A stretch of DNA of 64,000 bases. Origin: a virus. The stretch spans positions 3,025 through 67,024 of IMG/VR virus record IMGVR_UViG_3300036832_000367. The stretch is one strand, 5' to 3'. This document shows positions 1 to 18,945 of this stretch, piece by piece. The notes beneath the pieces were generated by a model. It saw only the letters and a program-made list of their open reading frames with translations, was not told the origin of the DNA and searched no databases. The position numbers and the translations under genes were made by a program. Position 1 is the first letter of the stretch, and the number at the start of each line of letters is the position of its first letter.

Positions 1-2580
1 GCCGGTGGTGTCAACGGCACGCCGTACAGCGTCCGCTCCGAGTCGGCGGACGGCTCGCAATGGGAGGACGCGCAGGGCAACTATAATTCTGCCACCGGCA
101 CGTTCGCGCGCACCACGGTGCTGTACAATTCCAGCGGCACCGGAACCGGCGCGGGGCAAACCGGCGCGGGCACCAAGATCAATTTCACCACGGTGCCGCA
201 GGTTCAGGTCGTCGCGCTGGCGGAGGATTTGGCGTTTGCGCCGCTGGCATCGCCAACCTTTACCGGAACGCCAACCGCACCAACGGCGGCGGCGAACGAT
301 AATTCAACCAAGATCGCGACGACGGCCTATGTGGTTGGACAGGCCGGGACCGCCAACCCAATCATGAACGGCGCGGTCGCGGTCGGCACCTCGCTGCTCT
401 ATGCGCGGCAAGACCATGTGCATCCAAGCGATACCTCGCGCGCGCCGACCGCCAGCCCGGTCTTCACCGGCACGCTGTCGTCGGCCAACCAGACCATCAC
501 GTCGGCGTCCGCCAACGCCACGACCATCGGCCCGAACGGCCTGACCAACCCGACGCTGAACGTCGATAGCTCGACGGTGTCATCGGCTACTGGTCTCAAC
601 ATCAAGTCGGCGGCGGCAGCGGCGGGCCTCGCGTTGGCAGTGCTGTCGTCAGGTGCCAATGAAAACCTGACGATCAGCGCCAAGGGCACCGGTACCATCA
701 CGCTCGGCAGCGCATCAACGGGCGCTATCGTGCATACGCCGCCGACCACACTCAGCGCGGCGTTGACTTATGGCGGCGTGACGTTGGCAAACGCGGTGAC
801 CGGCACCGGCAACATGGTGCTGTCCGCCAACCCGGTCTTCACCGGCACGCTGTCGTCAGCCAACCAGACTATTACCTCGACTTCAGCCAACGCTAATGCG
901 GTTGGTCCGGCTGGCACGACCAACCCGACCTTCAACGTCGATAGCTCGACGGCATCGGCGGCGACTGGTCTCAACATCAAGTCAGCAGCCGCAGCGGCGG
1001 GCCTCGCGCTATCGGTATTGTCGTCGGGCACTAACGAAAACCTGACAATCAATGCCAAAGGCACCGGCACCATCACGTTCGGCAGCGCGTCAACTGGCGC
1101 GATCATTCACACGCCGCCGACCACCTTGAGCGCCGCGCTGACCTATGGCGGCGTCGCACTCGCCAACTCGGTGACCGGCACCGGCAGCATGGCGTTGTCG
1201 ATCTCGCCGACCTTCACCGGCACCGTGACCGCACCGTTGCTCGCGGGCGGCAGCGCGGTCAGCTCGACGCTGACGTTGCAGAGCACGACCGCCGCTGGCA
1301 CCAGCGACTTGATTTTGCTGAAGACCGGCTCGCAGGTCGAGCGGCTGCGGGTTGATAACCTTGGCCAGTTCACGATCAACAACGCTGGCTCGACCAGCCT
1401 GACCACTGGCATATTCTTAAATATCTACACCACTGACGGCACAAATCATCCGGGCTTCATTGCGGGCTATCAGCAAAGCAATGACGCCGTGCCGGGCTAC
1501 ATCGTGCTGCGCAAATCGCGGGGCACGACGGTCGGCAGTTTCGCCCTTGTGGCGAACAACGACAAGATCGGCGAGTTGGCGTGGGATGCCGACATCGGTA
1601 CGGCCTACCTCAATTGCGCGATTGTGTCTGCCGAGGTGGACGCTGCCCCGGTATCTGGGCAACGCGTCGCTGGCAGGCTGATGTTTAAGACTTCGATCGT
1701 CAACACCGCCGTCACCGAGCGAATGCGGATCGACTCGACGGGCCAGATCATCGCCAATCAGGCGGGTGCTTCTAGCGTTCTTGGCTCTTTCTTCACCGCC
1801 TATAGCGTCGATGGCGTTAACAACCCCGGATTTCTCACCGGCTACCAGCAGAGCGCTGACGCTGCCGGGGGCTACATTCAACTGAACAAGTCGCGCGGCA
1901 CGACTGTTGGCAGCCACGCAGTCTTGCAGAGCAACGACGTCTTGGGAGCCTATGGTTTCGGTGGCGACGACGGCACCAACATTCGGTCGCCCGCATTTAT
2001 TCAAGCCGTCGTTGACGGCTCGCCGACATCTGGTCAGCGCCTGCCAGCGAGGATGAGCTTCTATACCGGAGTAGTAAACACTGCGCCCGCTGAGCGGGTT
2101 CGTATCGACAATGGAGGCGGTGTGTTCGTGATCTCAGTTGGCACAACTGCCAGCGCGGCCAATGCCTTCATCAACAACGCATCCAGCCCCGTCAACCAAT
2201 TGCTGCGTTCAACTTCTTCGTTGAGATACAAGAAGGATGTCGAACCCGTGGCTGACACTTACCGGGATGCCGTGTTGGCGATCAAGCCGATTTGGTATCG
2301 CTCCAAGTGCGCAGCCGACGATCCAACCCTTTCCTTCTATGGCATGGCCGCCGAAGAGGTTGCCGCGATCGATCCTCGCCTCTGCCATTGGGCCTATTGT
2401 GATGAAGACTATGACACGGTCGTCGTCCGCGCGGGCGACAGAGATGAAGGCATAGAACGCATTCTAAAGCCCGGCTCCAAGCTTGTGCCGGACGCGGTCA
2501 TGTACGAGCGTGTTGCGATCTTGCAGATCGCCGCACTCGCCGCGAAGATCAGCGCGCTCGAACAGAGGATGAAATCTTGA
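1..2580 (+). CDS. Tail/head fibre protein with C-terminal intramolecular chaperone (peptidase S74-like); 5'-truncated
   Basis: Frame 1 is open from base 1; SPTFTGTPTAPT fibre motif, ERMRIDSTG repeats, TSSLRYKKDV...G..AEEV chaperone signature and terminal coiled coil. Confidence 0.85.
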   Translation, partial: AGGVNGTPYSVRSESADGSQWEDAQGNYNSATGTFARTTVLYNSSGTGTGAGQTGAGTKINFTTVPQVQVVALAEDLAFAPLASPTFTGTPTAPTAAANDNSTKIATTAYVVGQAGTANPIMNGAVAVGTSLLYARQDHVHPSDTSRAPTASPVFTGTLSSANQTITSASANATTIGPNGLTNPTLNVDSSTVSSATGLNIKSAAAAAGLALAVLSSGANENLTISAKGTGTITLGSASTGAIVHTPPTTLSAALTYGGVTLANAVTGTGNMVLSANPVFTGTLSSANQTITSTSANANAVGPAGTTNPTFNVDSSTASAATGLNIKSAAAAAGLALSVLSSGTNENLTINAKGTGTITFGSASTGAIIHTPPTTLSAALTYGGVALANSVTGTGSMALSISPTFTGTVTAPLLAGGSAVSSTLTLQSTTAAGTSDLILLKTGSQVERLRVDNLGQFTINNAGSTSLTTGIFLNIYTTDGTNHPGFIAGYQQSNDAVPGYIVLRKSRGTTVGSFALVANNDKIGELAWDADIGTAYLNCAIVSAEVDAAPVSGQRVAGRLMFKTSIVNTAVTERMRIDSTGQIIANQAGASSVLGSFFTAYSVDGVNNPGFLTGYQQSADAAGGYIQLNKSRGTTVGSHAVLQSNDVLGAYGFGGDDGTNIRSPAFIQAVVDGSPTSGQRLPARMSFYTGVVNTAPAERVRIDNGGGVFVISVGTTASAANAFINNASSPVNQLLRSTSSLRYKKDVEPVADTYRDAVLAIKPIWYRSKCAADDPTLSFYGMAAEEVAAIDPRLCHWAYCDEDYDTVVVRAGDRDEGIERILKPGSKLVPDAVMYERVAILQIAALAAKISALEQRMKS
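457..1206 (+). repeat. Intragenic tandem duplication, 375-bp period (125 aa)
   Basis: PVFTGTLSSANQTITS...LTYGGV.LAN.VTGTG starts at 457 and again at 832. Confidence 0.85.
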
Positions 2581-2873
2581 AAAGGATTGAACAGAAAAAA
2601 GAGGGCGACTTCTCCACGGCCAAGCTGTTGCAGCAAGTGTGCGAGACATCCATCAACGGCATGAACCTCACTCAGATGCGCAGCCGCATCCGCGTTCTGG
2701 ACGCGGTCGAGGCGGCCGGTGACGGCGACATCATGCTAGAGGACGCCGATTTTAACACGCTGTCAGAGGCCATCAATTCACAGCAGTGGGCGTTGGCGAG
2801 GAAGCAGCTTCTTGTGATCATCGACGGCGTCCTCGAAGCCAAGAACGTGGAGCCCGCCCAGAAGGAAAAATAA
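2577..2873 (+). CDS. Small hypothetical protein coupled to the fibre gene
   Basis: Overlaps the fibre stop; protein-like helical composition. Confidence 0.7.
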   Translation: MKRIEQKKEGDFSTAKLLQQVCETSINGMNLTQMRSRIRVLDAVEAAGDGDIMLEDADFNTLSEAINSQQWALARKQLLVIIDGVLEAKNVEPAQKEK

Positions 2874-2881
2874 GCGTGAGG

Positions 2882-3103
2882 CATGGTCGACCGGCGGTCT
2901 CATTCGGAATTGTGATAGACCGCGCGACCGGCGCAGTTGCGCGCGTCATCAACCCGGATTTTGAACACGAACTAGACGGTCACCATGTCGGGCCGCACCA
3001 GTTCATGATCCGCGCTTCAAAAGCCGAGTGGGGCATCGATAGCGCGCCCAACTCAATGACGCTTGGTCAGCTTAATCATATCGTCAGCGTGCTCGGCACA
3101 TGA
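2882..3103 (+). CDS. Hypothetical protein (start uncertain)
   Basis: Fills the gap; stop overlaps the next ATG (ATGA). Confidence 0.5.
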   Translation, partial: HGRPAVSFGIVIDRATGAVARVINPDFEHELDGHHVGPHQFMIRASKAEWGIDSAPNSMTLGQLNHIVSVLGT

Positions 3104-6100
3104 CGCAAGTTTTTCTCACCAGCGCCGACACTTCTCCGTGGTCTAGGCCAAGTGATTGGACTGACGCGGGCCATACCGTTGAACTGATCAGTGCAGGCGG
3201 CAAGGGTTACGGCAGTGCCAGCACTAGCACTGGCGGCGGTGGTGGTGGTGGCGGGTCATACTACAAGCTAACGTATTCATCTGGTGCTTTGGGAAGCACG
3301 ACGCCGTTTCAAGTCAAGGCTGGCAACGCTCTTACTTCTTACAATGTTTCTGCCTCGACGATTTGGCAGGGCACGACTGCCAGCAATTCTCACGAGGCGA
3401 AGGCTGGCCTCGCCGGGACGGTCAACACTGGTGTTGGCACTGGTGGTGGCGCTGCTGGGACTAACGTCGTTAACGGCACGCCTTCTCCGGTCACCTACAC
3501 TGTCACGACAGACAATCATGGTGGTGCTGGCGGAAACACTAACGCGGCAAGTTCTTGCTCAGGTGGCGGTGGCGGCGGTGCGGGTGGCCCTAACGGCGTC
3601 GGCGGTCCGGGTGGTCTCAGTTCTTCTCTCACTGCAAGCGGTGCTGGCGGCGGTGGCGGTGGCTCTGATGGTGGCTCGGCTGGCGCTTCTGGCGGATCGG
3701 TAGCAGCGCCGGGCGGCGCTGGCGGCAACGGCCAAAGCGGCACAGGTGGCGGCGCTGGCGGCGCGGCAGGATTGCCGGGAACGGCTGGCACTGCCAGCAG
3801 CGGAGCGGGCGGTGGCGGTGGTGGCGGATCGTCCAATGCTGCCGCAAACCAGATCGGTGGCGCTGGTGCGACCGGCAACGTGTTTGACTCGACTCATGGC
3901 TGCGGCGGCGGCGGTGGTGGTGGTGCTTCCAATAACAGTAACACTGCGGGCGCGAACTGTAATGGAGGGGCAGGAGGAAACTACGGCGGCGGCGGCGGCG
4001 GCTCGGGTCGAACGCGCGGCACTCCCAGCACCGGCAGCGGGCCTAGCAATGCCGGTGAAGGCCTCACCGTCATCACCTATACGCCGGGCGGCGGCACGAC
4101 CTATAACGACTCCACGGCGGAGACCGCGAGCGCCGCCGATGCGCTCGACGCGGCTTGGATCGTATCTGACACGGTACCTGAAACCGCGACTGCGACGGAT
4201 ACCGCCTCCGCCGCTGCTGGCCCTATATCTGTCACGGTATCTGAAACCCTGTCGGCGCTGGATGCTGCCGAGCCTACTTGGTTAGATCAATTTCAGAATG
4301 GCGCGCTCGACCTGCTCGCGGTCGGTCAGCGCATCGTTTTTAGCTCGGCCGGTAATACCTACAACAAATCCACCGCCGAAACTGCGACGGCGACGGATGT
4401 GCCTGCGGCGCTCGCGGTGTTCGTTGCCGCTGTCGCCGAGAGCGCGACCGCGACGGACACTGAGGACGCGGCCACGGTTCGCGCGGGGGCTGTCGCGGAG
4501 ACGGCGACTGCAACCGATACCCCGAACGCTGCGACCGTCCGAGTGGGTGCGGTTGCCGATGCGACGACCGCAACCGATACCGAGAACGCGGCGTTCGTTG
4601 GTGTTGCCGCCGTTGCCGAAACGACGACCTCGACCGACACGTCGGCGGCGGCAACGGTTCGCGCTGGTGCGGTTGCCGATGCGACGACCGCAACCGATAC
4701 CGAGAATGCGGCGTTCGTTGGTGTTGCCACCGTTGCTGAAACCGCGACGTCGACGGATACCAACTCTGCCAGCGCAGTCTCTGTCAGTGCCGTCTCTGAA
4801 ACCACGACCGCGACCGACGTCACTAACGCGGCTGCGGTTAGCGTCGGCACCGTCGCTGAGACCGCAAGCGCGACGGACACGACGGACGCGACACTAGGCG
4901 CTGCCACGTATGCCGTTGCTGAGACCGCGACCGTAACCGACGCGACTGCCGCCAGCGGAATCTTCGTCGCAACTGCCGCTGAGACCGCGACGGCGACCGA
5001 CACTACTGACGCGGCGACCATTCGCGTCGGCGCAGTTGCGGAAGCAACGACCGCAACCGACACGCCAAACGCGGCGACCGTCCGGGTTGGTGCCGTCGCC
5101 GAGGCCACGACGGCGGTTGATTCTCAGGCGGCGCTCGCGGCTTTCGTTGCTGCTGTTGCGGAAGCGTCGACCGCAACGGATGTGCAGGGAGCACTTGCCG
5201 CATTCGTTGTCGCAGATAGTGAGACGACCGCTGCGACTGATGCAGCCAGCGCGGCGATCGTCCGGGTTGGCGTGGTTGCCGAGACAACGACGGCGACCGA
5301 CGTCAATAGCGCGCAGTTTGTCTTTGCGGTCAGCACAGCGGAAACCAGCACGGCGGTCGATACGCCTGCCGCGCTCGGAATCTTCGTCGCAGCCACCGCC
5401 GAGCCCGCGACGGCAACTGATGCGCAGGCGGCGCTCGCCGCGTTCGTTGCTGCTGTCGCGGAAGCAGCCAGCGCGACTGATGCGCAGGCAGCGCTCGCTG
5501 CATTCGTTGTCGCGGATAGTGAGATCGCCACCGCGACCGATACGGCGAACTCGATATCCGTTGGTGTTGCTGCCACCGCCGAGACCGCCACCGCGAGCGA
5601 TACCCCGAACGCGGCGACCGTCCGCGTCGGTGCAACAGCGGAAACGGCGAGCGCGACTGATGCGGCGAGCGCAGCGACCGTCCGCGTCGGCAGCGTGGCG
5701 GAGGCGACCACCGCGACGGACACGTTGTCGGCGGCGACCGTTCGCGTCGGTAGCGTTGCGGAAGCGACAACCGCCATCGATACGCCGACCGCGACCGGAA
5801 ACTTTGTGTTCTCCGCGACGGTGGCGGAAACCGCGACCGCCTCCGACAGCACCGACGGCGTGGTCGGCGGCATTTTGGTCTCGATCTCGGAGACGGTCAG
5901 CGTCGTCGATACGGCCGCCGCAACCGGCATCTTTGTTGCTGCCGTCGCAGAAGCGGCGAGCGCGACCGACACCAATAACGGAACGCTCGGCGCGGTTGTC
6001 GCCGAGACCACATCGGCGGTCGACACCAACTCGGCCGCCACGGCGTCGATCCAGACTGTTGCTGAGGCTGCGACGGCGGTTGATACCGCGAACGCAGCAA

Positions 6101-6618
6101 CCATCCGCGTCGGTGCCGTTGCGGAAACGGCAACCGCGACGGACGCAGCCAACTCTGGTGTCAGCGGGCCTATTAGTGCCACCGCCGAAACCGCGACAGC
6201 GACCGATGCCACCAACGCGATCCGGCTGGTTTTCGGTTCGGTCAGCGAGGTCGCGGCGGCCAACGACAATGTTTCGACGCTCGGCCAGTTCGGCTCCACG
6301 GTCACCGAGACGGCGACGGCGAGCGATACGGTTTCCAATGTTGTTTCGCTATTTGTCGCGACATCGGAAACCGCTGCCGCTATCGATGATGCCACAGCGT
6401 TCGTCATCGCCTTCGCGGCCAGCGCGACTGATCCGGATCGTGTTGTTCAGGCCGATGCTGAAAATCGTGGCGTGATCGTCGATGCGGAAAACAGGATAGT
6501 TATCGTCGATCCAGAGGACAGAATCATCATCGTCGACGAGGAAAACCGGTGGGTTGTCGTTGACGCAGAGGATCGTATGATTACCCAAGATGAAATTGAC
6601 TTGAACGTCGCTGCTTGA
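3100..6618 (+). CDS. 1172-aa Gly-rich plus Ala/Thr-repeat virion surface protein
   Basis: N-terminal GGGGGG glycine-rich domain, ~40 imperfect (V)AETATATD repeats, C-terminal VDAENR repeats. Confidence 0.8.
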   Translation: MTQVFLTSADTSPWSRPSDWTDAGHTVELISAGGKGYGSASTSTGGGGGGGGSYYKLTYSSGALGSTTPFQVKAGNALTSYNVSASTIWQGTTASNSHEAKAGLAGTVNTGVGTGGGAAGTNVVNGTPSPVTYTVTTDNHGGAGGNTNAASSCSGGGGGGAGGPNGVGGPGGLSSSLTASGAGGGGGGSDGGSAGASGGSVAAPGGAGGNGQSGTGGGAGGAAGLPGTAGTASSGAGGGGGGGSSNAAANQIGGAGATGNVFDSTHGCGGGGGGGASNNSNTAGANCNGGAGGNYGGGGGGSGRTRGTPSTGSGPSNAGEGLTVITYTPGGGTTYNDSTAETASAADALDAAWIVSDTVPETATATDTASAAAGPISVTVSETLSALDAAEPTWLDQFQNGALDLLAVGQRIVFSSAGNTYNKSTAETATATDVPAALAVFVAAVAESATATDTEDAATVRAGAVAETATATDTPNAATVRVGAVADATTATDTENAAFVGVAAVAETTTSTDTSAAATVRAGAVADATTATDTENAAFVGVATVAETATSTDTNSASAVSVSAVSETTTATDVTNAAAVSVGTVAETASATDTTDATLGAATYAVAETATVTDATAASGIFVATAAETATATDTTDAATIRVGAVAEATTATDTPNAATVRVGAVAEATTAVDSQAALAAFVAAVAEASTATDVQGALAAFVVADSETTAATDAASAAIVRVGVVAETTTATDVNSAQFVFAVSTAETSTAVDTPAALGIFVAATAEPATATDAQAALAAFVAAVAEAASATDAQAALAAFVVADSEIATATDTANSISVGVAATAETATASDTPNAATVRVGATAETASATDAASAATVRVGSVAEATTATDTLSAATVRVGSVAEATTAIDTPTATGNFVFSATVAETATASDSTDGVVGGILVSISETVSVVDTAAATGIFVAAVAEAASATDTNNGTLGAVVAETTSAVDTNSAATASIQTVAEAATAVDTANAATIRVGAVAETATATDAANSGVSGPISATAETATATDATNAIRLVFGSVSEVAAANDNVSTLGQFGSTVTETATASDTVSNVVSLFVATSETAAAIDDATAFVIAFAASATDPDRVVQADAENRGVIVDAENRIVIVDPEDRIIIVDEENRWVVVDAEDRMITQDEIDLNVAA

Positions 6619-6631
6619 GGGAAGAAGGCAA

Positions 6632-6904
6632 ATGTCAAAGAGATGGCCGCCGAAAGACCCTGATGAAGTCTTGGATTATGGGGTTGACTGGAGTCTTCGG
6701 CTGGCCGGGGACGTCATCTCGACATCGGCGTGGACAATTCCCGCCGGTCTCACCAAGCAGACTGACACCAAGACCAACACCAGCACAACGGTGTGGCTCT
6801 CGGGCGGCGTTGATGGACAGAGTTACGACAACCTGAATCACATCGTGACGGCTGGCGGCCGGACGATGGAGCAGACCGTCGAACTGAGGATCAAACAGAA
6901 ATGA
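6632..6904 (+). CDS. Small virion protein (fibre adaptor-like, KDPDEVLDYGVDW motif)
   Basis: KDPxExLDYxxDW motif common in phage structural small proteins; SD upstream. Confidence 0.7.
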   Translation: MSKRWPPKDPDEVLDYGVDWSLRLAGDVISTSAWTIPAGLTKQTDTKTNTSTTVWLSGGVDGQSYDNLNHIVTAGGRTMEQTVELRIKQK

Positions 6905-9039
6905 ACCGGCACGTCGCGGTCAAGGCGCGCGCGCGCGAGGCGCTGCAACGGTTCAATCCTAATCACGACCCGAAGGACGGTCAGTTCAGCAGCGGCGATG
7001 GCGGCGATGGTGGTAAACCCTCAAGCGGCGGCACGTTTTCCAAGGTCAGTGCTAGCGAGTTTGTGACGGCGCGCGATACCAGCAACCGGCCGATGTTTCT
7101 GTCGGCGAACAGCGCGCAGGATTTGAATGATCACGAGACGTTTGTTTCAAAGGACGGCAAGGTCGGCTACGCGCTCGATCAACATGGCGATCTGCAAAAC
7201 CTGTTCAACAATGGCGGTCCAAAGGGCGCGGGCCGGGCCGCATTGATCGATGCCGTGCTGCACGGCGCGCGAACCTTGGATGCGTTCGATCCGTACTTGC
7301 CGAAGATTTATGCCGAGCATGGTTTTGTGGCTACCGGGCGAATGCCGTTCAACGATAAATATGCCCCTGATGGTTGGGACTATGCTAAGTATGGCCGTCC
7401 CGACGTGGTGTTCATGGCGTATCGGGGCGGCGATCCGGCGACACTGAAAGACCGTGTAGGGACATTTGGCAAATATGCAGCGGGCCAAGGCGGACAATCT
7501 TTCGACGATTACGATGCAGCAAAAGCTGCCTCCCGAAGCCATATCGTGGATAAACGGCTTGACGCCGGACGATCGCGACAGCATCGAATACATCTTGGGT
7601 CTGGTGGGGCCGGACGACTTCGCGAAACACTGGACCGAGTACCGCAAGGACTTGGAACACGCAGCCAACCTTTAGCGCGCGCACGCGCGGTCAAGGCAGC
7701 ACATCCCGGTGCGGGCTACTCCGCTTCAGCCAGCGTTGACGATAACGGCGTCATTCACACGTCGAGCGTTTACGACGCGCAACGCGCGCTGTTCGAACAT
7801 CGGCCGGTCGAACTAAATCAAGCCAGCCAAGGCAGCGTGTTGCTGGATAAATTGGGCGAGACCGCGCAAAAAATGATTGATCGGGGCAAGCAAGCCCCGG
7901 CGTTCAATCTATGCAGCGTGACTGTCAAGGGCAGCAACTTGTTCTGTGCCGATACCGAAGGCATTCCTCGCGTCGAGATGCCCGGACTAAGTGATCCACA
8001 GATCAAGGGCCAAGGCTTCGCGGTTACTGAGGGCGACGAATACGCCTCGCATTTGCGTGCCACGCAGAACGAATTGAATGGGGCCAAGGTCGCGGCCATT
8101 GCCGAGAAGATTGCGAACAAGCCAGATTATTATTCGAAGCCTATCGCGGTTTCGAAGGACAACTACATTCTCGACGGGCACCATCACTGGGCCGCTAAGA
8201 TCGGTCTCGATGCCAAGCAAGGCAAACTCACTAACGACACCAAGATTAAAACCGCGCGAGTTGATGTCGGGATAACCAAACTGCTGGCAGTCGTCGGCAA
8301 AAGCAGGCACGCCGCTGTCAAGGCTGAAGCGCTTGCGACGCTACAGAAGTTCAATCCGAACCACGACCCGAAGGACGGGCAATTCACCAGCGGAGACGGT
8401 GGCAGTGGTGATGGTGCCGGGCACCTCACAATTCATGACGATCTGTCGCGTGCCAGCAACGAAACGCAGCCGGTCAAGTCGCTGGACGATCTTTACACCA
8501 AGGCCAAGCAAGGCGAGCAGGACTTTCTCGATCAGGTCCACGCGGCAGCGGACGCGAGCGGCGGCAAGGTGATGCTGACCCCGATGCAATTTTCCGAGCC
8601 GGGCACCACGCTAAAATCCAGAACGTCGGCGGAACGCAAACTGCGCGATGAATTGAACAACGATCCGACGCAGTTGCGCGACGTCATGCGCGCCACCATC
8701 GCCAACGATACAGTCAAGGACAGTCGGAGCGCCGCGCTGGCGTTCATCAAGGCGCACGGCGACGATGTGCTGCGAGTCAAGGATCGTTTCGTCAGCGCCA
8801 AGGACGGCTATCGCGACATCTTGGTCAATTATCGCACCAAGAGCGGCGTCATCGCAGAATTGCAATTCAATACCCACAAACTGATCGCCGCCAAAGAGGG
8901 TGAGGGTCATCGAATCTATGAGCAGAGTCGCAAGCCGGGCGTGCCGACCAGAATGCGAGTCAGTCTAGAGCAACAGGCAAATGCGCTTTATGGCGCGGCC
9001 TATCATGGCAGCGGGAACGGGAACTGGGGAAAGAAGTGA
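6901..9039 (+). CDS. Polyvalent protein: GNAT-like, ParB/Srx-like and RelA/SpoT-type synthetase domains
   Basis: Two FNPNHDPKDGQF motifs; LDAFDPYLPKIYAEHGF; ATQ...ILDGHHHWAA (ParB-like); LKSRTSAERK...DVMRATI...GYRDILVN...ELQFNT (SAS motifs). Confidence 0.75.
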   Translation: MNRHVAVKARAREALQRFNPNHDPKDGQFSSGDGGDGGKPSSGGTFSKVSASEFVTARDTSNRPMFLSANSAQDLNDHETFVSKDGKVGYALDQHGDLQNLFNNGGPKGAGRAALIDAVLHGARTLDAFDPYLPKIYAEHGFVATGRMPFNDKYAPDGWDYAKYGRPDVVFMAYRGGDPATLKDRVGTFGKYAAGQGGQSFDDYDAAKAASRSHIVDKRLDAGRSRQHRIHLGSGGAGRLRETLDRVPQGLGTRSQPLARARAVKAAHPGAGYSASASVDDNGVIHTSSVYDAQRALFEHRPVELNQASQGSVLLDKLGETAQKMIDRGKQAPAFNLCSVTVKGSNLFCADTEGIPRVEMPGLSDPQIKGQGFAVTEGDEYASHLRATQNELNGAKVAAIAEKIANKPDYYSKPIAVSKDNYILDGHHHWAAKIGLDAKQGKLTNDTKIKTARVDVGITKLLAVVGKSRHAAVKAEALATLQKFNPNHDPKDGQFTSGDGGSGDGAGHLTIHDDLSRASNETQPVKSLDDLYTKAKQGEQDFLDQVHAAADASGGKVMLTPMQFSEPGTTLKSRTSAERKLRDELNNDPTQLRDVMRATIANDTVKDSRSAALAFIKAHGDDVLRVKDRFVSAKDGYRDILVNYRTKSGVIAELQFNTHKLIAAKEGEGHRIYEQSRKPGVPTRMRVSLEQQANALYGAAYHGSGNGNWGKK
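7514..7675 (+). CDS. Nested out-of-frame small protein (candidate immunity; alternative start 7475)
   Basis: MQQKLPPEAISWINGLTPDDRDSIEYILGLVGPDDFAKHWTEYRKDLEHAANL looks globular, while the host frame here is an R/G-rich linker. Confidence 0.55.
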   Translation: MQQKLPPEAISWINGLTPDDRDSIEYILGLVGPDDFAKHWTEYRKDLEHAANL

Positions 9040-9254
9040 CACCATTGTTTGCCTATCGTGTGACCACGCCGAACGGTGTGACGTTCTTTGCCGTCATCGA
9101 CGGCAAGGACGGCATCGCTGATGAAGTGCTGTCGACTCGCGACGGGTCTTGGAAACCGGAGCCGTTGCTGACAGCGGCGGACCTGATCCAGCCGGAGCAG
9201 AAATTCAACGAGTGGGATATCGTGAAAATCGATCCATCCAAGTTGCCCAAGTGA
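9036..9254 (+). CDS. Small protein, candidate antitoxin of the SAS domain
   Basis: GTGA overlap with the stop of the SAS-ending gene; 72 aa. Confidence 0.6.
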   Translation: MTPLFAYRVTTPNGVTFFAVIDGKDGIADEVLSTRDGSWKPEPLLTAADLIQPEQKFNEWDIVKIDPSKLPK

Positions 9255-9271
9255 TGAAGGGATAAGCGCCC

Positions 9272-11539
9272 ATGCCGATCAAGCCGCACAAGAACGAAGA
9301 TCAGTCCGCGTGGATGGCCAGATGCGTGCCCGAGATGATTGGCACCGGGAAGGACAAGCGGCCACAGGCTCAGGCGGTCGCCGCCTGCATGACGATCTGG
9401 CGGGAGTCCGGATCGAGCAAGACCGCGAGGCAGATCGAGGCGGAGGTCGAAGCGCCATATCCGGACGAAACCGAGCAAGAGTTCATGGACCGCTGCACGC
9501 TAGAGGCGGACGAGGCCGATTGTCAGATGATGTGGGATGAACGGTCTTTCGGGCTTGGCGTGGTTCACAAGCTGCATTCCGAAATTCCAGTGGGCCACGA
9601 CTTCGTGTTGTCGGATGCGACCGTTGATCGATATGGCGACACCATCGATGCGGATGGCTGGGACTTGAGAAACTTCAGCAAGAATCCGATCGCGTTGTTT
9701 AATCACAATCCAGATTTCCCGGTTGGGAAATGGAGCAAGCTAGGCGTCAAGGATGGCAGACTAACCGGACGGCTCGAATTGGCTCCGGAAGGCACGTCGG
9801 CCAGACATGATGAAATCCGCAGGCTCGTCGATGCGGGAATTTTGCGGGCAGTGTCGGTTGGCTTTAAGCCCGTGGAAGTCAAGCCCATCGAATCGAAAGG
9901 CGGCAAGAACGGACTGCATTACCTCAAGTCGGAATTGATCGAGACCAGCCTTGTGTCGGTCCCGGCAAATCCGAACGCCTTGCAGGTCGCGCGGTCTCTG
10001 AGAATATCCGATGACACCATCAAGATGGTATTCGCCGAGCATGGCGACAGCCGCTTTGTGCGTCGTGGGGCCAATGGCGAGCACGCCGGGACTAAACCAG
10101 TCGTGAAAGCAAAGGTAAGGGCTATGACCCCGATTGCAAAACGTATCGAGGCATCCGAGGCCACGCTTGTCCAGTATCGTGATGAACTGGAAAAGCATCT
10201 GGGCACTATGGATGATACAAACCCCGACGAGACGGTGACCGCTCAAGTCGAGGAATGGACGGAAAAGGTCAAGGCGCAGGAGCGAAGCCTGAATGCTCTG
10301 CGCGCCGTCGAGGCGCAGAACGCCGAGACGATCACGCTTCAGCGGACCGGAACCAGCAACGGCGTGACACATTTCGCCGATGGCAGTTCGAGCGCGCAGG
10401 CGGCTTCTGCGCGGCCGTTCGCGATGGCCAGAAAGCAGATCAGGCCGGTCGAGTATCTGTACAAGGCGCTGACGGTGCAGTTGAAGCACTTTGATCAGCG
10501 CGGTCGGCGTTCGATCTATGACGTGATGCAGGAAACCTATGGCGAAGACCCGATGGTCAAGACCATGGTCGACTGGACCACGCGCACGACGTCGGTCCCC
10601 GCGACCACGACGGTCACGGGCTGGGCGGCGGAGCTTGTCACCACCAGTTACGGCGAGTTCTTCGATGCCCTGTTCCCGGCCTCGATCTACGCGCCGCTGC
10701 GTGCCAAGGGCGGCTCGTTCACGTTTGGGCGCAGTGGTGTTGTCGTGCTGCCGACCCGCAGCCGGACCGCGCCGATCTCCGGAGCGTTTGTTTTGCAGGG
10801 ATCAGCGATCCCGGTGAAGCAGGGCCAGTTCGCCACCATCAGCCTGACGCCGAAGAAGATGGCGGTGATCTCGACGTTCACTCGTGAGATTTCCGAGCAT
10901 TCGACCCCGGCAATCGAGCAGTTGATCCGCGATGCCATCGTCAATGACACGGCGGTCGCAATCGACGCGGTGTTGATGGATGCCAACCCGGCGACAGCTA
11001 CTCGCCCGGCGGGCATTCTCAACGGCGTTGCGGCGATCCCCGCGACGACCGGCGGCGGCATCGTGTCACTGATCGGCGACCTCAAGGCTCTGTCCAGCGC
11101 CTTGCTGGCCTCGACCTTTGGCGGCATTCGTCAGCCGGTGTGGATTATGACGCCGCAAGACGCCGTGGCGATCAGTCTGACGCAGGCGGCGGCCGGTGGT
11201 GATTTCCCGTTCGCGAATATTCTCAACACGGGAATGCTGCTTGGCTATCCGGTCATTCAGTCTACCAACGTCACGGCCGACACCATCATACTGGTGGACG
11301 CTGCGGACTTTGCGACGGCGACCGGAGACACGCCGAACTTCTCGGTGTCCGATCAGGCGACGTTGCACATGGAGGCGACGACACCCGCCGAAATCGTCGG
11401 CACGCCGAGCGTCGTTGCGGCACCGGTCCGCTCGCTATGGCAGACGGATAGCATCGGAATTCGCATGATCATGGATATCAACTGGGTCTTGCGTCGTGTC
11501 GGCATGGTGCAGTGGATCAGCGGCCAACTCTGGAACTGA
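9272..11539 (+). CDS. HK97-type prohead protease - major capsid protein fusion
   Basis: DRYGD, LFNHN, VSVGF, ETSLVSVPANPNA protease motifs, then capsid (LTPKKMAVIS, LLGYPVIQS, WQTDSIGIR); possible internal in-frame start at 10124. Confidence 0.93.
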   Translation: MPIKPHKNEDQSAWMARCVPEMIGTGKDKRPQAQAVAACMTIWRESGSSKTARQIEAEVEAPYPDETEQEFMDRCTLEADEADCQMMWDERSFGLGVVHKLHSEIPVGHDFVLSDATVDRYGDTIDADGWDLRNFSKNPIALFNHNPDFPVGKWSKLGVKDGRLTGRLELAPEGTSARHDEIRRLVDAGILRAVSVGFKPVEVKPIESKGGKNGLHYLKSELIETSLVSVPANPNALQVARSLRISDDTIKMVFAEHGDSRFVRRGANGEHAGTKPVVKAKVRAMTPIAKRIEASEATLVQYRDELEKHLGTMDDTNPDETVTAQVEEWTEKVKAQERSLNALRAVEAQNAETITLQRTGTSNGVTHFADGSSSAQAASARPFAMARKQIRPVEYLYKALTVQLKHFDQRGRRSIYDVMQETYGEDPMVKTMVDWTTRTTSVPATTTVTGWAAELVTTSYGEFFDALFPASIYAPLRAKGGSFTFGRSGVVVLPTRSRTAPISGAFVLQGSAIPVKQGQFATISLTPKKMAVISTFTREISEHSTPAIEQLIRDAIVNDTAVAIDAVLMDANPATATRPAGILNGVAAIPATTGGGIVSLIGDLKALSSALLASTFGGIRQPVWIMTPQDAVAISLTQAAAGGDFPFANILNTGMLLGYPVIQSTNVTADTIILVDAADFATATGDTPNFSVSDQATLHMEATTPAEIVGTPSVVAAPVRSLWQTDSIGIRMIMDINWVLRRVGMVQWISGQLWN

Positions 11540-11541
11540 TT

Positions 11542-11838
11542 GTGAAAATTGCCGATCGCGTGGTGCTGCTTTGCCTCGCGATCGGTTTGATCTTGGGTAT
11601 TGCGCTTGCGGAACCAGTTCATCTCATTGAATTGCACAACCCGAAGGGTCGAAAGATTTTCGTCAACCCTGCCGAGATTACTGCGTTGCGTGAGTCAGGG
11701 GCGGGAGATTTCAAGCATTTTAGCGATTCAGTTCATTGCTGGCTTGGCTTCACGGGCGGGAAATATGCCACAGTGGTCGAGGACTGCGCGACTGTGCGAA
11801 GGCTGATAGAAGCAACTTCGAAACCGAAGGAGAACTAA
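11542..11838 (+). CDS. Membrane-anchored or exported FlbD/SwrD-like small protein
   Basis: N-terminal hydrophobic segment, then IELHNPKGRKIFVNPAEITAL...VVEDCATVRRLI resembling the FlbD family. Confidence 0.5.
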   Translation: MKIADRVVLLCLAIGLILGIALAEPVHLIELHNPKGRKIFVNPAEITALRESGAGDFKHFSDSVHCWLGFTGGKYATVVEDCATVRRLIEATSKPKEN

Positions 11839-11840
11839 AT

Positions 11841-12251
11841 ATGACTGATCTTGTCATCGTGCCCGCGAACGTGGTCGCTGGTACAAACGCAACATTCGAG
11901 CAGGGTCTTGCCGGGGCGACAGTCCTTGCCGGACAGACGGTCTATCAGGACAGCACCACCAAAAAATATGTGCTGTCGGATAACAATCTCGCCGCCATTG
12001 AGGGCAGGACGCCGCGCGGCATTGCGCTGCACGGGGCATCGCTGAACCAGCCACTCAGAATTCTAAAGTCCGGCGACATCACCATCGGCGCGACGATAAC
12101 GGCTGGCGTGGCATATTACCAATCGGCCAATCCGGGCGGCATTTGCCCAGCGGCGGATGTTGTTTCCGGTTCACAGGCCACGATCGTCGGCATGGGCAAG
12201 ACGACCACCGTGCTCACCGTCGATATCCAGACCACCGGAGTGCAGTTGTAA
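11841..12251 (+). CDS. Capsid decoration/cement-like protein
   Basis: Strong SD AAGGAG; AGATVLAGQTVY..GIAL beta-rich pattern; follows the capsid gene. Confidence 0.65.
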   Translation: MTDLVIVPANVVAGTNATFEQGLAGATVLAGQTVYQDSTTKKYVLSDNNLAAIEGRTPRGIALHGASLNQPLRILKSGDITIGATITAGVAYYQSANPGGICPAADVVSGSQATIVGMGKTTTVLTVDIQTTGVQL

Positions 12252-12255
12252 AAAC

Positions 12256-13254
12256 ATGCTGCTCATTGGTGCCGAAACGCTCAACGAGATGGAAGCTTGG
12301 GATCATCTCGACCGTGGCGTCAAACTGGCAAACGAAAGACGTCTTGCCGAGGCGATAGCAAGCTTCGACCGCGTCTTGGCACTGACGCCGGACGATATGG
12401 TCGCCCATTGGAATCGGGCGTTGTCCTTGCTGTCGCTTGGTCGCTATTCGGAAGCGCTGGAAGAACTGGAATGGCGATGGAAGCTGTTCAATTGGCGGTG
12501 GGGATATCTGGGCCACGACGTCGAGAGGGTAGCAGCAATCGAGCAATGGCTGGGGCAGGACATCAACGGCAAGCACCTGCTCTATTATCATGAGCAGGGA
12601 TACGGCGATAACATCATGATGGCGCGATACCTGCCGATGATGCGGGCCAAGGGCTGCAAGATAACCCTGCTCACCGTGCCGCCGCTGATCAGGCTGCTCA
12701 GCCGGTTCAAGCCCGACAACGTCATCACGGCGCTGCCGGACGATCTCAGTGAGTTCGACTATCGCTGCTCGGCATTCCTGCCGATGCGAGTGTTTCAGAC
12801 GACCGTCGACAGCATTCCGCCAGCGCCCTATCTCGCAACGAAGTTCGCGCGCGAGCCGGGCACCATCGGGCTGGTCTGGTCCGGCGTCACGCAAAAGAAA
12901 CTTTCCGCCGCGAAGTTCTTGCACCTGCTCAATCCCGGCGCGGCATACCGGCTCAAAAGCTTGCAGCCGGGTCCGGTGATGCAGGGCGTTGAGCCGCTGG
13001 TTTCGGAAGATTTTCTGGACACCATGAATCAGATGGCGCGCATGGAGCACATCGTCACCGTCGACACCGCGATTGCCAACCTCGCGGGCGCGATGGGGCA
13101 TCCTTCGGCTCATGTCATTTTGCCGCTGCTTCAGGATTGGCGCTGGTACTACGCTGATAAATGGTATCCGACGCTGAAGATATACCGGCAGCAAGGCGAC
13201 GACTGGAATGCGCCGTTTGCACAAGTCAGGGAGGCGCTGCGGTGTCAACATTAG
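12256..13254 (+). CDS. TPR-containing glycosyltransferase (GT9-like, GT-B fold)
   Basis: TPR (AIASFDRVLALTPDD..AHWNRA), EQGYGDNI, VTVDTAIANLAGAMG, DWRW motifs. Confidence 0.8.
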   Translation: MLLIGAETLNEMEAWDHLDRGVKLANERRLAEAIASFDRVLALTPDDMVAHWNRALSLLSLGRYSEALEELEWRWKLFNWRWGYLGHDVERVAAIEQWLGQDINGKHLLYYHEQGYGDNIMMARYLPMMRAKGCKITLLTVPPLIRLLSRFKPDNVITALPDDLSEFDYRCSAFLPMRVFQTTVDSIPPAPYLATKFAREPGTIGLVWSGVTQKKLSAAKFLHLLNPGAAYRLKSLQPGPVMQGVEPLVSEDFLDTMNQMARMEHIVTVDTAIANLAGAMGHPSAHVILPLLQDWRWYYADKWYPTLKIYRQQGDDWNAPFAQVREALRCQH

Positions 13255-13826
13255 ATCGCTTGCGGGAAGATGTTTACGGCCACAAACATCTGACTCCGGA
13301 CTGGCAGTTTCGATATGCCGACGCGATCATCAACGCTCCACCCGGTCTGATGCTGGAATTTGGCGTTGCTTCCGGGCACTCCATCACCGGGATCGCAGGG
13401 ATGATCTGGCCGCGAGTGATCTACGGTTTCGATTGGTTTAAGGGATTGCCGGAAGACTGGAAGCCGGGCACGGGCAAGGGCGCATTTGCCTGCATTGTTC
13501 CAGAATCGCTGCCCGTGAACGTCAGGATTATCGAGGGTCTATTTCAAGACACGCTGGACGGATTTTTGGCAAGGCGTCCCGAGCGGATTGGGTTCGTGAA
13601 CATGGACGCTGATATTTATTCTTCAACGGCATTCGTGCTATCGCGGATCGAGGGTAGGTTCGTCGACGGCACGGTGCTGCATTTCGACGAGATACACGGC
13701 GATCAAGAAAACTTTGATAATGAGGGGCGGGCATTCGCAGAGTGTCTAGATCGCACCGGCCTTGGTTATGAAGTGATAGCCAAGGATTGTCACGAAGGTG
13801 CGTTTTTTCGAATCAAGAAGTCGTAA
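13242..13826 (+). CDS. Class I SAM-dependent O-methyltransferase (TylF/MycF-like)
   Basis: LEFGVASG, YGFDWFKGLPEDW, GLFQDTL, MDADIYSS, FDE motifs. Confidence 0.85.
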   Translation: MSTLDRLREDVYGHKHLTPDWQFRYADAIINAPPGLMLEFGVASGHSITGIAGMIWPRVIYGFDWFKGLPEDWKPGTGKGAFACIVPESLPVNVRIIEGLFQDTLDGFLARRPERIGFVNMDADIYSSTAFVLSRIEGRFVDGTVLHFDEIHGDQENFDNEGRAFAECLDRTGLGYEVIAKDCHEGAFFRIKKS

Positions 13827-13856
13827 GTTCAACATCAGCAAAAGGAGAATCTAAAA

Positions 13857-14390
13857 ATGCCATTAGCAATGATTACGTGGGTTGGCGAAGGCGGCGGTGG
13901 TGGTGGTGGCGGTCAGCCGTCGCATCCGATCTATAATCCGCCGGGCATCTGGCCGTCGCCGGGGCACCCGTCGCACCCGATCGCGCCGGGTGGACAGCCT
14001 CCGGGGATTTGGCCGCCCGGTTCTGGAATTGACATGCCGTCGCATCCAATCGCGCCGGGCGGCCAGCCTCCCGGCATTTGGCCGTCGCCGGGTCATCCCT
14101 CGCATCCGATTGCACCGGGTGGCCAGCCTCCGGGCATCTGGGGCGGTGGTAACGAGCCGTTCCCGACACCGCCGATTGTGATTCCGATCCGACCGGGTGA
14201 ACAGCCTCCGGAAGCCGGTAACGGGCTTTCGCCGTCGCATCCGATCTACATCCCGCCGCCGCCCGGTGTCACGGACGGAACCAAGGCGCTGGTTCATGTG
14301 TATGTGCCGGGAGTCGGTGGAGTCTGGTTCCTGATCGAAGTGCCAGCGCCGACTCCGCCGCCAACCGAGCCGACGCCGAAGCCCGCGTAG
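13857..14390 (+). CDS. Pro/Gly-rich repeat protein
   Basis: Strong SD AAAGGAG; repeats of PSHPIAPGGQPPGIWP. Confidence 0.75.
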   Translation: MPLAMITWVGEGGGGGGGGQPSHPIYNPPGIWPSPGHPSHPIAPGGQPPGIWPPGSGIDMPSHPIAPGGQPPGIWPSPGHPSHPIAPGGQPPGIWGGGNEPFPTPPIVIPIRPGEQPPEAGNGLSPSHPIYIPPPPGVTDGTKALVHVYVPGVGGVWFLIEVPAPTPPPTEPTPKPA

Positions 14391-14447
14391 CGGGTGAGGT
14401 TGGGGCGAAGACTCCCGAAACCATCAAACCCTGAAAGGATCACTGTG

Positions 14448-14807
14448 ATGGTAGATGTTATCCCTGCTGCTCCGAGTGAGCAGAAACCAAGGTCCAACAC
14501 CAACATCCCGATGCGCGACCGCGAACGTGATGTTGGCGAGCGCAGAGCGGCGCGGCAAGAGGCTGCCAAAAAGCTGGTTGATGAAGCGGCGAAGGAGCAT
14601 GAAGAAATTCTCGCCCAGTACGCCGAAGATCATCCGGCTGGCAGCAAGCCGACGCCAACGCCGGATGAAATCGCCTTGGCCGCTGTCGGCGCGAACAAAA
14701 TGGAGAAGGAGGATGACGGCAGCGGTCCTGACCGTGGTCCTCGTTATCTGACGCGCGAAATGAGTGCGAGAGAGCGCGAGATGAGGGCGACCGAGCGGAA
14801 AAAGTAA
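14448..14807 (+). CDS. Hypothetical protein
   Basis: SD AAAGGA upstream; KPTPTPDE motif; abuts the portal gene. Confidence 0.65.
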   Translation: MVDVIPAAPSEQKPRSNTNIPMRDRERDVGERRAARQEAAKKLVDEAAKEHEEILAQYAEDHPAGSKPTPTPDEIALAAVGANKMEKEDDGSGPDRGPRYLTREMSAREREMRATERKK

Positions 14808-14810
14808 ATC

Positions 14811-16217
14811 ATGAGCCTGCTGTCTCGTATCTTCAAACCCTCCGTTGCGAAAGCAGCGGAGGGTGAAGTTCAACCGGGGCCATGGTGGCTGCCTGTTTCG
14901 CAGGGCTGGCTGAGTTCTGAGGCCGGTCAGTTCATGAATTGGTGGCAGATGGGCCACGACGTGCAAGGCGGCGGTAGCAGCGCCTTGGTGGAAGCGTGCG
15001 TGTCGGCCTACAGCCAGACTATCGCGATGTGCCCCGGAGACCATTGGCGACTAAGAGGCAAGAATGGGCGCGAGCGCGTCACGACCAGCGCGCTAACGCG
15101 CATCCTGCGTTCGCCAAACGATTACGAGACGATCTCCGATCACTTGCTGAACTCGGTTCGAGATTTATACAGCAACGGCAATTCCTATGCCTTGGCTCTG
15201 CGCAACACCAGATTTGAAATCGATGAATTGCATTTGATGGACCCTTGGTACAGCCGTCCTCATGTCGCTTACGATGGGTCGGTCTGGTACTTTCTTGACG
15301 GCAACCCGGTCAAGCGAAGAACGATTGATTATCCTGAGTTGGTGCCAGCGCGCGATGTGCTTCATATCAAGCTGCATCGTTCAAGGCATTATAAGCTGAT
15401 GGGAGTCAGCCCGATTCAAGCGGCTGCGGCTGACATTGCCACGTCGGGAGCGATGACCGCGCAGCAATTCCAATTTTACACCAATCAGGCGCGCCCCAGT
15501 GCGATCCTTTCCACGGATGCGGTATTGACCGCCGCGCAGTTGGAGGAATTGCGTACCTCTTGGAACGCGCAGACGCGCGGGATGCAATCCGGCGGCACGC
15601 CGATTCTTGGTGGCGGATTGAAGCCGCAGAACTTGGCCACGTCGGCAAAGGACGCCGAGTTGGCCGATATGCTGAAACTGAATCAGCAGAATATCGCGCT
15701 GGCTTTTCGCATTCCCTTGGAGATGCTGGGCATCGGAGGGGGAAACCTGAAGTCGACCCAAGACCTGATGCGCAACTGGCTTGCTGGCAGTCTTGGCTTT
15801 GCGCTTAATCATGTCGAGGAAGCGTGGGGAAAGACCTTCGGATTGTTCGGCGTCCCCAATGAATATGTCGAATTTGACACGCGCGCGCTGCTGCGCTCGG
15901 CGTTCACCGAACGCGTTGATGGCTATGTCAAAGGCGTGCAGGGCGGCATTTTCTCGCCGAATGAAGCGCGCGATGAATTCGAGTTGGATGAAGTGCCGTT
16001 CGGCGATGAGCCGAGAGTGCAGCAGCAATTGGTGCCGTTAAGCGCCGCGTCTCAAATCCAGAATCCCATTCACGCAACGCCAATTGCCCCGTCACCGGGT
16101 CCGCCGTCTCCGCCGCCCGCGTTGCCCGCGCCCGCGCCTAAAAAGATGTTGGAGTCAGCCGATGAACTCACAAACTTCCGTCGAAGATTCCGCGCTTCCC
16201 ACCGAAACAGCCTTTGA
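14811..16217 (+). CDS. Phage portal protein (HK97 family)
   Basis: GNSYAL, DVLHIK, GVSPIQ, IALAFRIP, SPNEAR motifs. Confidence 0.95.
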   Translation: MSLLSRIFKPSVAKAAEGEVQPGPWWLPVSQGWLSSEAGQFMNWWQMGHDVQGGGSSALVEACVSAYSQTIAMCPGDHWRLRGKNGRERVTTSALTRILRSPNDYETISDHLLNSVRDLYSNGNSYALALRNTRFEIDELHLMDPWYSRPHVAYDGSVWYFLDGNPVKRRTIDYPELVPARDVLHIKLHRSRHYKLMGVSPIQAAAADIATSGAMTAQQFQFYTNQARPSAILSTDAVLTAAQLEELRTSWNAQTRGMQSGGTPILGGGLKPQNLATSAKDAELADMLKLNQQNIALAFRIPLEMLGIGGGNLKSTQDLMRNWLAGSLGFALNHVEEAWGKTFGLFGVPNEYVEFDTRALLRSAFTERVDGYVKGVQGGIFSPNEARDEFELDEVPFGDEPRVQQQLVPLSAASQIQNPIHATPIAPSPGPPSPPPALPAPAPKKMLESADELTNFRRRFRASHRNSL

Positions 16218-17975: not shown

Positions 17976-18178
17976 AGACGGTCGAAGTGACGGACCAATT
18001 CGATTACTATCTTTTCCGTCGAAGGTTCGTCCGATTTACGCCGGGGATTTATCTCAGCGTGATCGAGGCCGCAGCCAACGCAATCGTCGCCGCCGGGTGT
18101 GGCCGGATAGTCCAGCAGGAAGAACCAACCGAGCAAGCCATGGACGCCAGAGATGCCTTCAAACTCCGCCGCCTCTAA
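17972..18178 (+). CDS. Small hypothetical protein
   Basis: ATGA-coupled between the head-tail genes. Confidence 0.55.
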   Translation: MKTVEVTDQFDYYLFRRRFVRFTPGIYLSVIEAAANAIVAAGCGRIVQQEEPTEQAMDARDAFKLRRL

Positions 18179-18928: not shown

Positions 18929-18945
18929 CCTGAAAGGAAACCGCG

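Follow-up and report, generated by a model that had tools for sequence, protein, structure and literature searches.

Phages carry proteins into the cell together with their DNA, and the choice of head cargo is understood for a few model phages only. In phage T4, the internal proteins bear an N-terminal capsid-targeting sequence that is cut off by the prohead protease. Here we analyze P0001, a 712-residue protein encoded by an uncultured tailed phage (IMG/VR virus record IMGVR_UViG_3300036832_000367), and P0079, a 72-residue open reading frame (ORF) that follows it. The window, meaning the whole stretch of DNA analyzed, comprises bases 3025–67024 of this 67,024-base record (64,000 nucleotides), for which CheckV gives a completeness of 100%. 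P0001 is predicted to be a phage-type polyvalent protein with the order leader, GNAT-like module, ParB-like module, leader, and Apk1/Tas1-like synthetase. Judged from sequence comparison, what is new here is a polyvalent cargo protein that lacks MuF and is marked by a short header tag, and an Apk1/Tas1-type module with a previously unnamed partner family.

In the phage-type polyvalent proteins described by Iyer, Burroughs, Anand, de Souza, and Aravind in 2017, GNAT, ParB-superfamily, and RelA/SpoT domains are recurrent modules; delivery together with the DNA was proposed for these proteins, with a metallopeptidase (MPTase) as the processing device (PMC5512222). Another described arrangement is that of the MuF polymorphic toxins in which Apk2 is the (p)ppApp synthetase domain (PMC5576092, PMC12226406), where the genes for IapK, a small neutralizer acting in trans, and for Aph1 come next (PMC12226406). 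For the Apk1/Tas1 clade, the delivery domains listed in the text of PMC12691689 are those of the type VI and type VII secretion systems (T6SS and T7SS), XopAD, MuF, DUF4157, and Rhs/PAAR. Neutralization of toxic small alarmone synthetases (toxSAS) occurs either in trans, as by Tis1 and ATfaRel2, or in cis, as by the pZFD of CapRel SJ46 (PMC11782079).

Like the polyvalent proteins of PMC5512222, which are recognized by at least two unrelated effector domains in one polypeptide and by a location among phage late/virion genes, P0001 has three such domains in its 712-residue ORF and is encoded among late/virion genes. Unlike those in the published text of that work, it lacks the MPTase hub, with no match to a zincin-like MPTase or peptidase in Pfam, NCBIfam, or PHROG, and its units are marked by a short header tag and a Gly linker. 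With the MuF-Apk2 toxins it shares its origin in the head module of a temperate-type phage, an Apk-type synthetase, and a small putative neutralizer gene that comes next. It differs from them, as they are presented in the text of PMC12226406, in that neither the protein nor the genome has a MuF domain, the synthetase comes last among three modules, the partner belongs to an unrelated 72-residue family, and no HD_4-type (Aph1-like) hydrolase is encoded in the record. Tas1/Apk1-Tis1 of the Pseudomonas aeruginosa T6SS (PDB ID 6ox6) and the exported synthetases (PDB ID 8vx3) belong to the same clade and likewise combine a delivery part, a toxic synthetase, and a neutralizer; unlike in Tas1/Apk1-Tis1, the delivery proposed here would be by a phage capsid rather than a secretion system, and the tag falls outside the delivery-domain list in the text of PMC12691689.

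Organization of P0001 and its repeated leader

The P0001 gene is one uninterrupted ORF on the plus strand. Its parts, and the partner ORF behind it, are as follows.

6901..9039, plus strand: P0001, predicted 712-residue polyvalent cargo protein (uninterrupted ORF, translation; modules shuffled among relatives).
6901..7038, plus strand: leader 1 (residues 1–46), with the basic helix-like stretch RHVAVKARAREALQR, the tag core FNPNHDPKDGQF, and a Gly/Ser/Asp linker (tag profile match at 6946–7011).
7039..7566, plus strand: module 1 (residues 47–222), GNAT-fold acetyltransferase-like (AlphaFold2 model, Foldseek, VIA).
7567..7686, plus strand: tagless basic junction (residues 223–262), with a predicted local distance difference test score (pLDDT) below 50 and a net charge of +7 for residues 215–262.
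7687..8301, plus strand: module 2 (residues 263–467), an N-terminal half and a predicted ParB/sulfiredoxin-fold core (model, Foldseek, VIA, invariant columns).
8302..8421, plus strand: leader 2 (residues 468–507), with SRHAAVKAEALATLQK, the tag core FNPNHDPKDGQF, and a Gly-rich linker (tag profile match at 8344–8409).
8422..9036, plus strand: module 3 (residues 508–712), predicted Apk1/Tas1-type toxic small alarmone synthetase (phmmer against the PDB, family profile, Syn motifs).
9036..9254, plus strand: P0079, 72-residue partner ORF, its GTG start and the P0001 stop sharing bases (GTGA).

The sole long repeat in the P0001 gene is a direct repeat of 105 nucleotides (6908–7012 versus 8306–8410) that is 77% identical and encodes the two leaders; the second copy lies at residues 469–495 (nucleotides 8305–8385). 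Residues 2–40 and 468–506 are identical at 27 of 39 positions, and 12 of these 27 residues use different synonymous codons, so the leader is conserved as a peptide and not as DNA, and the leader peptide itself appears to be under selection. Both copies have the same build, consisting of a basic stretch (RHVAVKARAREALQR in the first and RHAAVKAEALATLQK in the second), the identical core FNPNHDPKDGQF, and a Gly/Ser/Asp linker. A search of all six frames of the window with the tag profile gave the two matches listed above and no others. The 12 synonymous differences among the 27 identical residues speak against an origin of the repeat in a recent duplication of DNA or in a recombination joint at the DNA level.

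A preliminary description, made by a model from the DNA letters alone, had already delimited this ORF and divided it into GNAT-like, ParB-like, and RelA/SpoT synthetase modules, an assignment that our fold and family comparisons bear out (GNAT fold, ParB/sulfiredoxin (Srx) fold, and Apk1/Tas1-type family, respectively). It had also placed a related leader before each of the three modules. Two of these leaders are indeed related; the stretch before the middle module, ARARAVKAAHPG, is not a copy. It shares only AVKA with the other two, and its HPGxGYS belongs to the ParB-like module, whose conserved start it forms. A true tag is found directly before the ParB-like module in 7 of 9 collinear relatives and not in P0001, P0011, or P0012. 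Searches with the leader by itself returned 2 chance-level matches in 50,697 phage records (tblastn, residues 2–34) and only the query among 5.8 billion proteins (word-index search, residues 1–45), the tag being too short for either tool.

Assignment of the three modules

Module 3 is the only module with sequence relatives of solved structure. With phmmer, residues 518–700 matched Tas1 (6ox6, E = 7.4e-6) and the exported synthetase SaEAS (8vx3, E = 1.3e-4) in the PDB. A family profile of 17 sequences strengthened these matches to 1.3e-16 for Tas1 and 2e-8 for SaEAS and placed the (p)ppGpp synthetase YwaC at 6.6e-3. The motifs K..R.S...K, D..R, GYRD, E.QF, and GH..Y...R are invariant columns among the 17 sequences, and the synthetase motifs pointed out in the preliminary description (K.R.S...K, D..R, GYRD, and ELQ) fall on such columns. 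We take these motifs to be Syn1–5. Five Syn motifs have been named for Apk-type synthetases (PMC12226406). Among 1.84 billion cluster representatives, 1416 relatives of module 3 were found at E ≤ 1e-3, 205 at 1e-10, and 39 at 1e-30. A weak match to the C-terminal part of XopAD agrees with a placement in the Apk1/Tas1 clade. Module 3 is thus assigned, by homology, as an Apk1/Tas1-type synthetase of the RelA/SpoT superfamily, which would most likely pyrophosphorylate ATP or ADP to (p)ppApp and thereby drain ATP.

Scans of the P0001 modules with Pfam returned nothing at E ≤ 10 except noise, and profiles of modules 1 and 2 had no significant match among PDB sequences, so fold comparison was needed for these two modules. 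The AlphaFold2 model of module 1 (residues 40–262, alignment of 21 sequences) has a pLDDT of 82.9, and its leading Foldseek matches are all GNAT acetyltransferases (E = 5e-4, probability about 1). The VIA comparison aligned 129 residues with 1y9k at a Z-score of 11.9 and a root mean square deviation of 2.7 Å, and gave Z-scores of 11.2 (2cnm) and 11.0 for RimI. Based on the model, module 1 is a GNAT-fold, RimI-like acetyltransferase-like domain. The acetyl-CoA-binding loop of GNAT proteins has the form Q/R-x-x-G-x-G/A, and the family consensus of module 1 has a conserved GGPKGAG block in the expected region that may correspond to this loop; Pfam gave no GNAT match. Relatives of module 1 are annotated as acetyltransferases in Streptomyces phages, and the same GNAT type forms the C-terminal end of a "minor capsid protein" in the cultured Microbacterium phage UtzChips.

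The model of module 2 (residues 261–478) has a pLDDT of 83.7. Its C-terminal half (residues about 366–470) matches sulfiredoxin, pNOB8 ParB-N, the free serine kinase SerK, SbnI, PadC, and KorB; the Foldseek matches include Srx (3cyi, E = 1.6e-3) and pNOB8 ParB-N at a probability of 1.0. In an unbiased wide VIA search, the top 8 rows were all ParB/Srx proteins (Z-scores of 8.3–5.6), followed by a row at 4.0. The predicted ParB/sulfiredoxin-fold core contains an invariant DGHH.W motif. No clear fold was found by structure comparison for the N-terminal half (residues 261–355), and the family profile aligned to phage P1 DdrB by hhalign with a probability of 0.2, the template being a single sequence, which leaves room for a distant relation. 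Module 2 is for these reasons assigned, on the basis of its model, to the ParB/Srx superfamily only.

The header tag in relatives of P0001

A search of 5.8 billion proteins yielded 78 relatives in which the three modules are shuffled. They occur together with Acb1, ART-PolyVal, ADP-ribosyl exotoxin, Zeta toxin, NUDIX, HD_4, and FAD oxidoreductase domains, and in fusions with head proteins that include two portal families (PF06381 and PF06074), MuF, DUF2213, and protease-capsid fusions. The reading of P0001 as a polyvalent, toxin-like protein of the head module, put forward in the preliminary description, fits this context. At almost every module border of the relatives there is a tag that reads [FWY]-[DN]-[PE]-x-x-(H)P-R-D-x-x-G-[KR]-[FW] and leads into a run of Gly (GGGG). 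In the P0001 leaders the core is spelled F-N-P-N-H-D-P-x-D-G-Q-F, and FNPNHDPKDGQF with its Gly-rich linker is evidently a local variant of this widespread header tag of capsid-associated modules.

A loose regular expression found 120 tag sites, a few of them false, in 66 of the 78 relatives, and a local profile built from 150 seeds of the regular expression found 130 tags in 70 of them, with 0 to 4 tags per protein. In the set of Apk proteins, 38 of 148 had tags by the profile, 65 tags in all. Of 108 tagged proteins, 49 have their first tag no more than 40 residues from the N terminus, and single-domain proteins consisting of a tag and an Apk domain exist (220–300 residues). In a FastTree phylogeny of 150 Apk domains, the domain of P0001 falls in a group of 47 rows, 29 of them tagged, with a local support of 97, which is of the local SH-like kind only, several long branches being unreliable. 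The other 103 rows include 11 tagged ones and a 50-row clade without the tag. The tag label requires 23 changes on this tree, compared with a mean of 35.3 after shuffling, and none of 500 shuffles was as low.

On a related viral contig (L004), the tag heads separate genes at 12715–13683 and 13923–15260, one of which encodes a type IB topoisomerase (PF01028); its tag suggests that this topoisomerase may be carried in the capsid. The tag was not found in the published text, supplements aside, on polyvalent proteins, MuF toxins, or exported synthetases, nor by searching for its motif strings. The T4 capsid-targeting sequences are similar in being short N-terminal peptides on unrelated proteins, with the head location of the tagged cargo being presumed here. 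They differ in that the header tag has another sequence, also occurs internally and repeatedly, has a Gly-rich linker behind it, and accompanies several protease families.

Loci with an Apk-type module and the small partner P0079

An alignment-based scan identified 16 viral loci with an Apk-type module; the corresponding single-sequence scan of viral contigs gave no relatives. The 7 close loci all lie in a head module. In three of these (L002, L007, and L008), the Apk module is fused ahead of DUF2213, with cement and capsid genes next; in two (L003 and L006), it forms the C-terminal end of giant portal polyproteins; and in two (L004 and L005), it has an ORF of its own, flanked by a portal-InPase fusion and a MuF gene.

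P0079 was missed in the preliminary description, which had P0001 directly upstream of the prohead protease. The two are nearly adjacent, with P0079 at 9036–9254 lying between P0001 and a protease-capsid fusion at 9272–11539. ORFs resembling P0079 lie right after the Apk module in L004, L005, and L006, and a related segment forms a C-terminal extension of the database protein P0090. A profile built from P0079 and these four sequences gave a match directly after the Apk module in 7 of the 7 close viral loci. The relative is a separate gene in L004–L006, a convergent 75-residue ORF starting 3 nucleotides past the toxin gene in L003, and an in-frame fusion in L002, L007, and L008, being positioned in L002 and L007 between Apk and DUF2213. 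The segment also follows the Apk domain directly and in frame in four database proteins (P0088, P0090, P0112, and P0126). When the P0079 alignment was used for a reverse scan, 6 viral loci were found, of which 5 are on the same contigs and the sixth lies at the edge of a contig, so that the gene upstream of it is incomplete. Family members number 41 and are 70–140 residues long; none has a name or a Pfam domain. P0079 is missing, like the Apk module, from the two closest head-gene relatives, which indicates that P0079 travels with the synthetase and not with the head genes.

P0079 may be the cognate neutralizer that keeps the synthetase silent, since the distribution of its family between trans and cis forms matches that of known toxSAS neutralizers. 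Like ATfaRel2 and the pZFD (PMC11782079), the P0079 family occurs as a separate small gene or as a C-terminal fusion; unlike in those cases, inhibition is presumed here, and P0079 has no detectable similarity to either.

Three of the loci carry further features. The portal polyprotein of L003 (118–7080) has 2321 residues (PF06381), with a match to an intein-splicing domain and a NUDIX domain, and is followed by a further tagged ORF that ends in Apk. On a distant contig (L012, 3346–8813), the trio of modules occurs as neighboring genes, namely DAM-like with phage GNAT-like, ParB_N, and RelA_SpoT (PF04607, E = 7e-7), and the ORF after the trio begins with an NPNHD-type tag. In the cultured Bordetella phage PHB04 (L020, 1545–5555), the order is portal, a 493-residue protein with an Apk-like end, a 69-residue ORF, and an annotated (p)ppGpp synthetase/hydrolase, which recalls the order Apk2-IapK-Aph1. 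Neither a header tag nor a P0079-family match was found in PHB04 (the small ORF) or in UtzChips gp4.

Gene neighborhood of P0001

The record is predicted to be a complete genome of an uncultured tailed phage that looks temperate because it contains repressor-like, RecE/RecT (RecET), and antiterminator genes. MuF (PF04233), noted as not evident in the preliminary description, is absent from P0001 and from the whole 67,024-base record at E ≤ 0.1. P0001 is flanked by a Gp77-like adaptor and the protease-capsid region, with the portal gene 5 kb downstream, and siphovirus-type connector and tail genes are found at 18153–29497.

6632..6904, plus strand: Gp77-like fiber-tail adaptor ORF of 90 residues (PF23148, E = 1.1e-24), whose end overlaps the P0001 start by 4 nucleotides.
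9272..11539, plus strand: fusion of a prohead protease (S78) with an HK97-type major capsid protein (PF04586 and PF05065; phrog_617, 2e-89; NCBIfam).
14811..16217, plus strand: portal protein (PF04860, E = 1.6e-65).

Relatives of the protease-capsid fusion are encoded in 11 viral loci and were found in none of 185,579 reference genomes. In the two closest of these head-gene relatives with upstream sequence (L029 and L030; 52% and 50% identity), the slot occupied here by P0001 contains tagged polyvalent ORFs. The cargo consists of a ParB-like module and ART in L029 and of oxidoreductase, ParB-like, and Acb1 modules in L030, so the slot upstream of the protease-capsid gene is a variable cargo slot. 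More distant protease-capsid relatives have a terminase gene in that slot and no tag. No terminase was recognized among the window ORFs scanned, the first 3,024 bases of the record lying outside the window. PADLOC gave no match.

The gene order over 1–16217 is unusual, running from a tail-fiber-like gene through a 1172-residue ORF, the Gp77-like adaptor, the cargo gene, the protease-capsid fusion, a TPR gene, and a methyltransferase gene, with the portal last. The 1172-residue ORF (3100–6618, plus strand) has no Pfam, PHROG, NCBIfam, or PADLOC match; no more than a lead comes from a protein-atlas feature search, which pointed to Gly_rich_2 minor tail proteins (score 0.94). A TPR-repeat protein and a class-I methyltransferase (PF13578 / TylF-like) are encoded at 12157–13826 (plus strand), after the capsid gene and before the portal gene.

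Discussion

We propose that P0001 is a tagged, packaged two-unit cargo protein with a toxic synthetase and P0079 as its cognate neutralizer, and we put the probability of this explanation as a whole at roughly 0.55. The protein would be expressed late, along with the head genes; it would then enter the procapsid and reach the next host together with the DNA. Unit 1 would be the tagged GNAT module joined without a tag to the nucleotide-dependent ParB/sulfiredoxin-fold domain, and unit 2 the tagged Apk1/Tas1-type synthetase, each opening with a leader in which a short basic helix, the tag core, and a Gly-rich linker follow one another. The tag would serve both as a mark for head cargo and as a flexible joint where the units separate. 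In the producer cell, P0079 would block the synthetase, in trans in this phage and in cis where it is fused. After infection, the synthetase would drain ATP into (p)ppApp, with the GNAT and ParB-like parts perhaps modifying host proteins or nucleic acid. Directly supported are the ORF, the folds and families, the repeat and its conservation at the peptide level, the distribution of the tag, the head-module context, and the linkage of Apk with P0079. The preliminary description supposed the repeated peptide to be a signal for capsid loading or for cleavage, which is plausible because the tag heads modules in most of the relatives and is often N-terminal. A wider proposal is tentative and rather doubtful as a whole: that the tag is the address label of a general, MuF-independent system for loading head cargo, with units released at the Gly-rich joint, and that the P0079 family is a new class of split or fused toxSAS neutralizers silencing a packaged synthetase until delivery. 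The address-label role proposed for the leader of roughly 25 residues has a logic similar to that of the cargo-loading peptides of encapsulins.

Several findings weigh against this proposal. The tag is kept in proteins covalently fused to a portal or a protease, where addressing would be redundant, and it co-occurs with at least three portal families and two protease types, so no single reader of the tag is evident. It is missing from the GNAT/ParB junction of P0001 itself and from the cultured phages with similar modules, and the counts of tags are circular in that the regular expression and the profile were derived from the same sequence sets. For P0079, two of the seven close loci (L007 and L008) are near-copies and three seeded the profile, which makes the independent confirmations fewer than seven; P0079 has no PDB sequence match, no named structural neighbor, and no likeness to known neutralizers, and its fused forms would enter the head together with the enzyme. 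The product of the synthetase, whether (p)ppApp, (p)ppGpp, or pyrophosphorylated tRNA, cannot be read from the sequence.

Retention in fused proteins and the lack of an evident common reader among several unrelated head-protein families would also be expected if the tag were a mere flexible joint or spacer left by module shuffling and read by neither capsid, portal, nor protease. Such a role would be in keeping with the constant company of a Gly-rich linker, with the position at module borders, and with the shuffling of cargo slots between related phages. A spacer would however have no need for the almost invariant aromatic...H/P-R-D...G-x-aromatic core or for conservation as a peptide across different codons, and many tags lie close to the N terminus or on single-domain proteins, where there is nothing to join; we consider this role unlikely. 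Less likely still is that P0001 is not packaged and acts late in the producing cell, for example in the shutdown of host metabolism or defense, its head location reflecting only the late operon. P0001 itself has no MuF, portal, or protease domain, and its gene overlaps its neighbors as ordinary late-operon genes do. However, in-frame fusions of homologous modules to portal, MuF, DUF2213, and protease-capsid proteins recur, which places such modules physically in proheads, and the phage would be harmed by a synthetase that drains ATP while virions assemble; the linked candidate neutralizer suggests that the enzyme is kept inactive at that stage.

P0079 could instead belong to the synthetase as an accessory subunit or domain, for example one that adapts it to a substrate or target, activates it, or docks it to the head. 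The in-frame fusions behind Apk in 3 loci and 4 database proteins, the two in which it sits between Apk and DUF2213, and the lack of similarity to Tis1, IapK-type, or pZFD neutralizers in the searches run would all suit such a part. Its downstream position, small size, start/stop overlap, and strict link to one toxin type are instead the usual signature of an immunity gene, and cis and trans forms of one neutralizer are documented for toxSAS in the text of PMC11782079. The accessory role is a real, if lesser, possibility. It is somewhat doubtful that module 3, instead of making (p)ppApp, acts like FaRel2 and CapRel, which pyrophosphorylate tRNA at its 3′ end, or makes (p)ppGpp. Relatives in the Apk1/Tas1 clade such as SaEAS can also make (p)ppGpp (PMC12691689), and toxSAS comprise metabolic and tRNA-targeting classes (PMC11782079); the closest solved relatives of module 3, however, are Tas1 and SaEAS, which the family profile ranks far ahead of YwaC.

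The locus is a compact test case for a capsid-linked Apk1/Tas1-type synthetase with a small partner. If the proposal holds, P0079 would widen the known ways in which toxic alarmone synthetases are restrained. The portable tag would provide a sequence rule for finding injected effectors in metagenomes, the effectors of the relatives including Acb1, which acts against the cyclic oligonucleotide-based antiphage signaling system (CBASS), as well as ADP-ribosyltransferase, Zeta-toxin, NUDIX, and alarmone synthetase, and it would offer a handle for loading chosen proteins into capsids.

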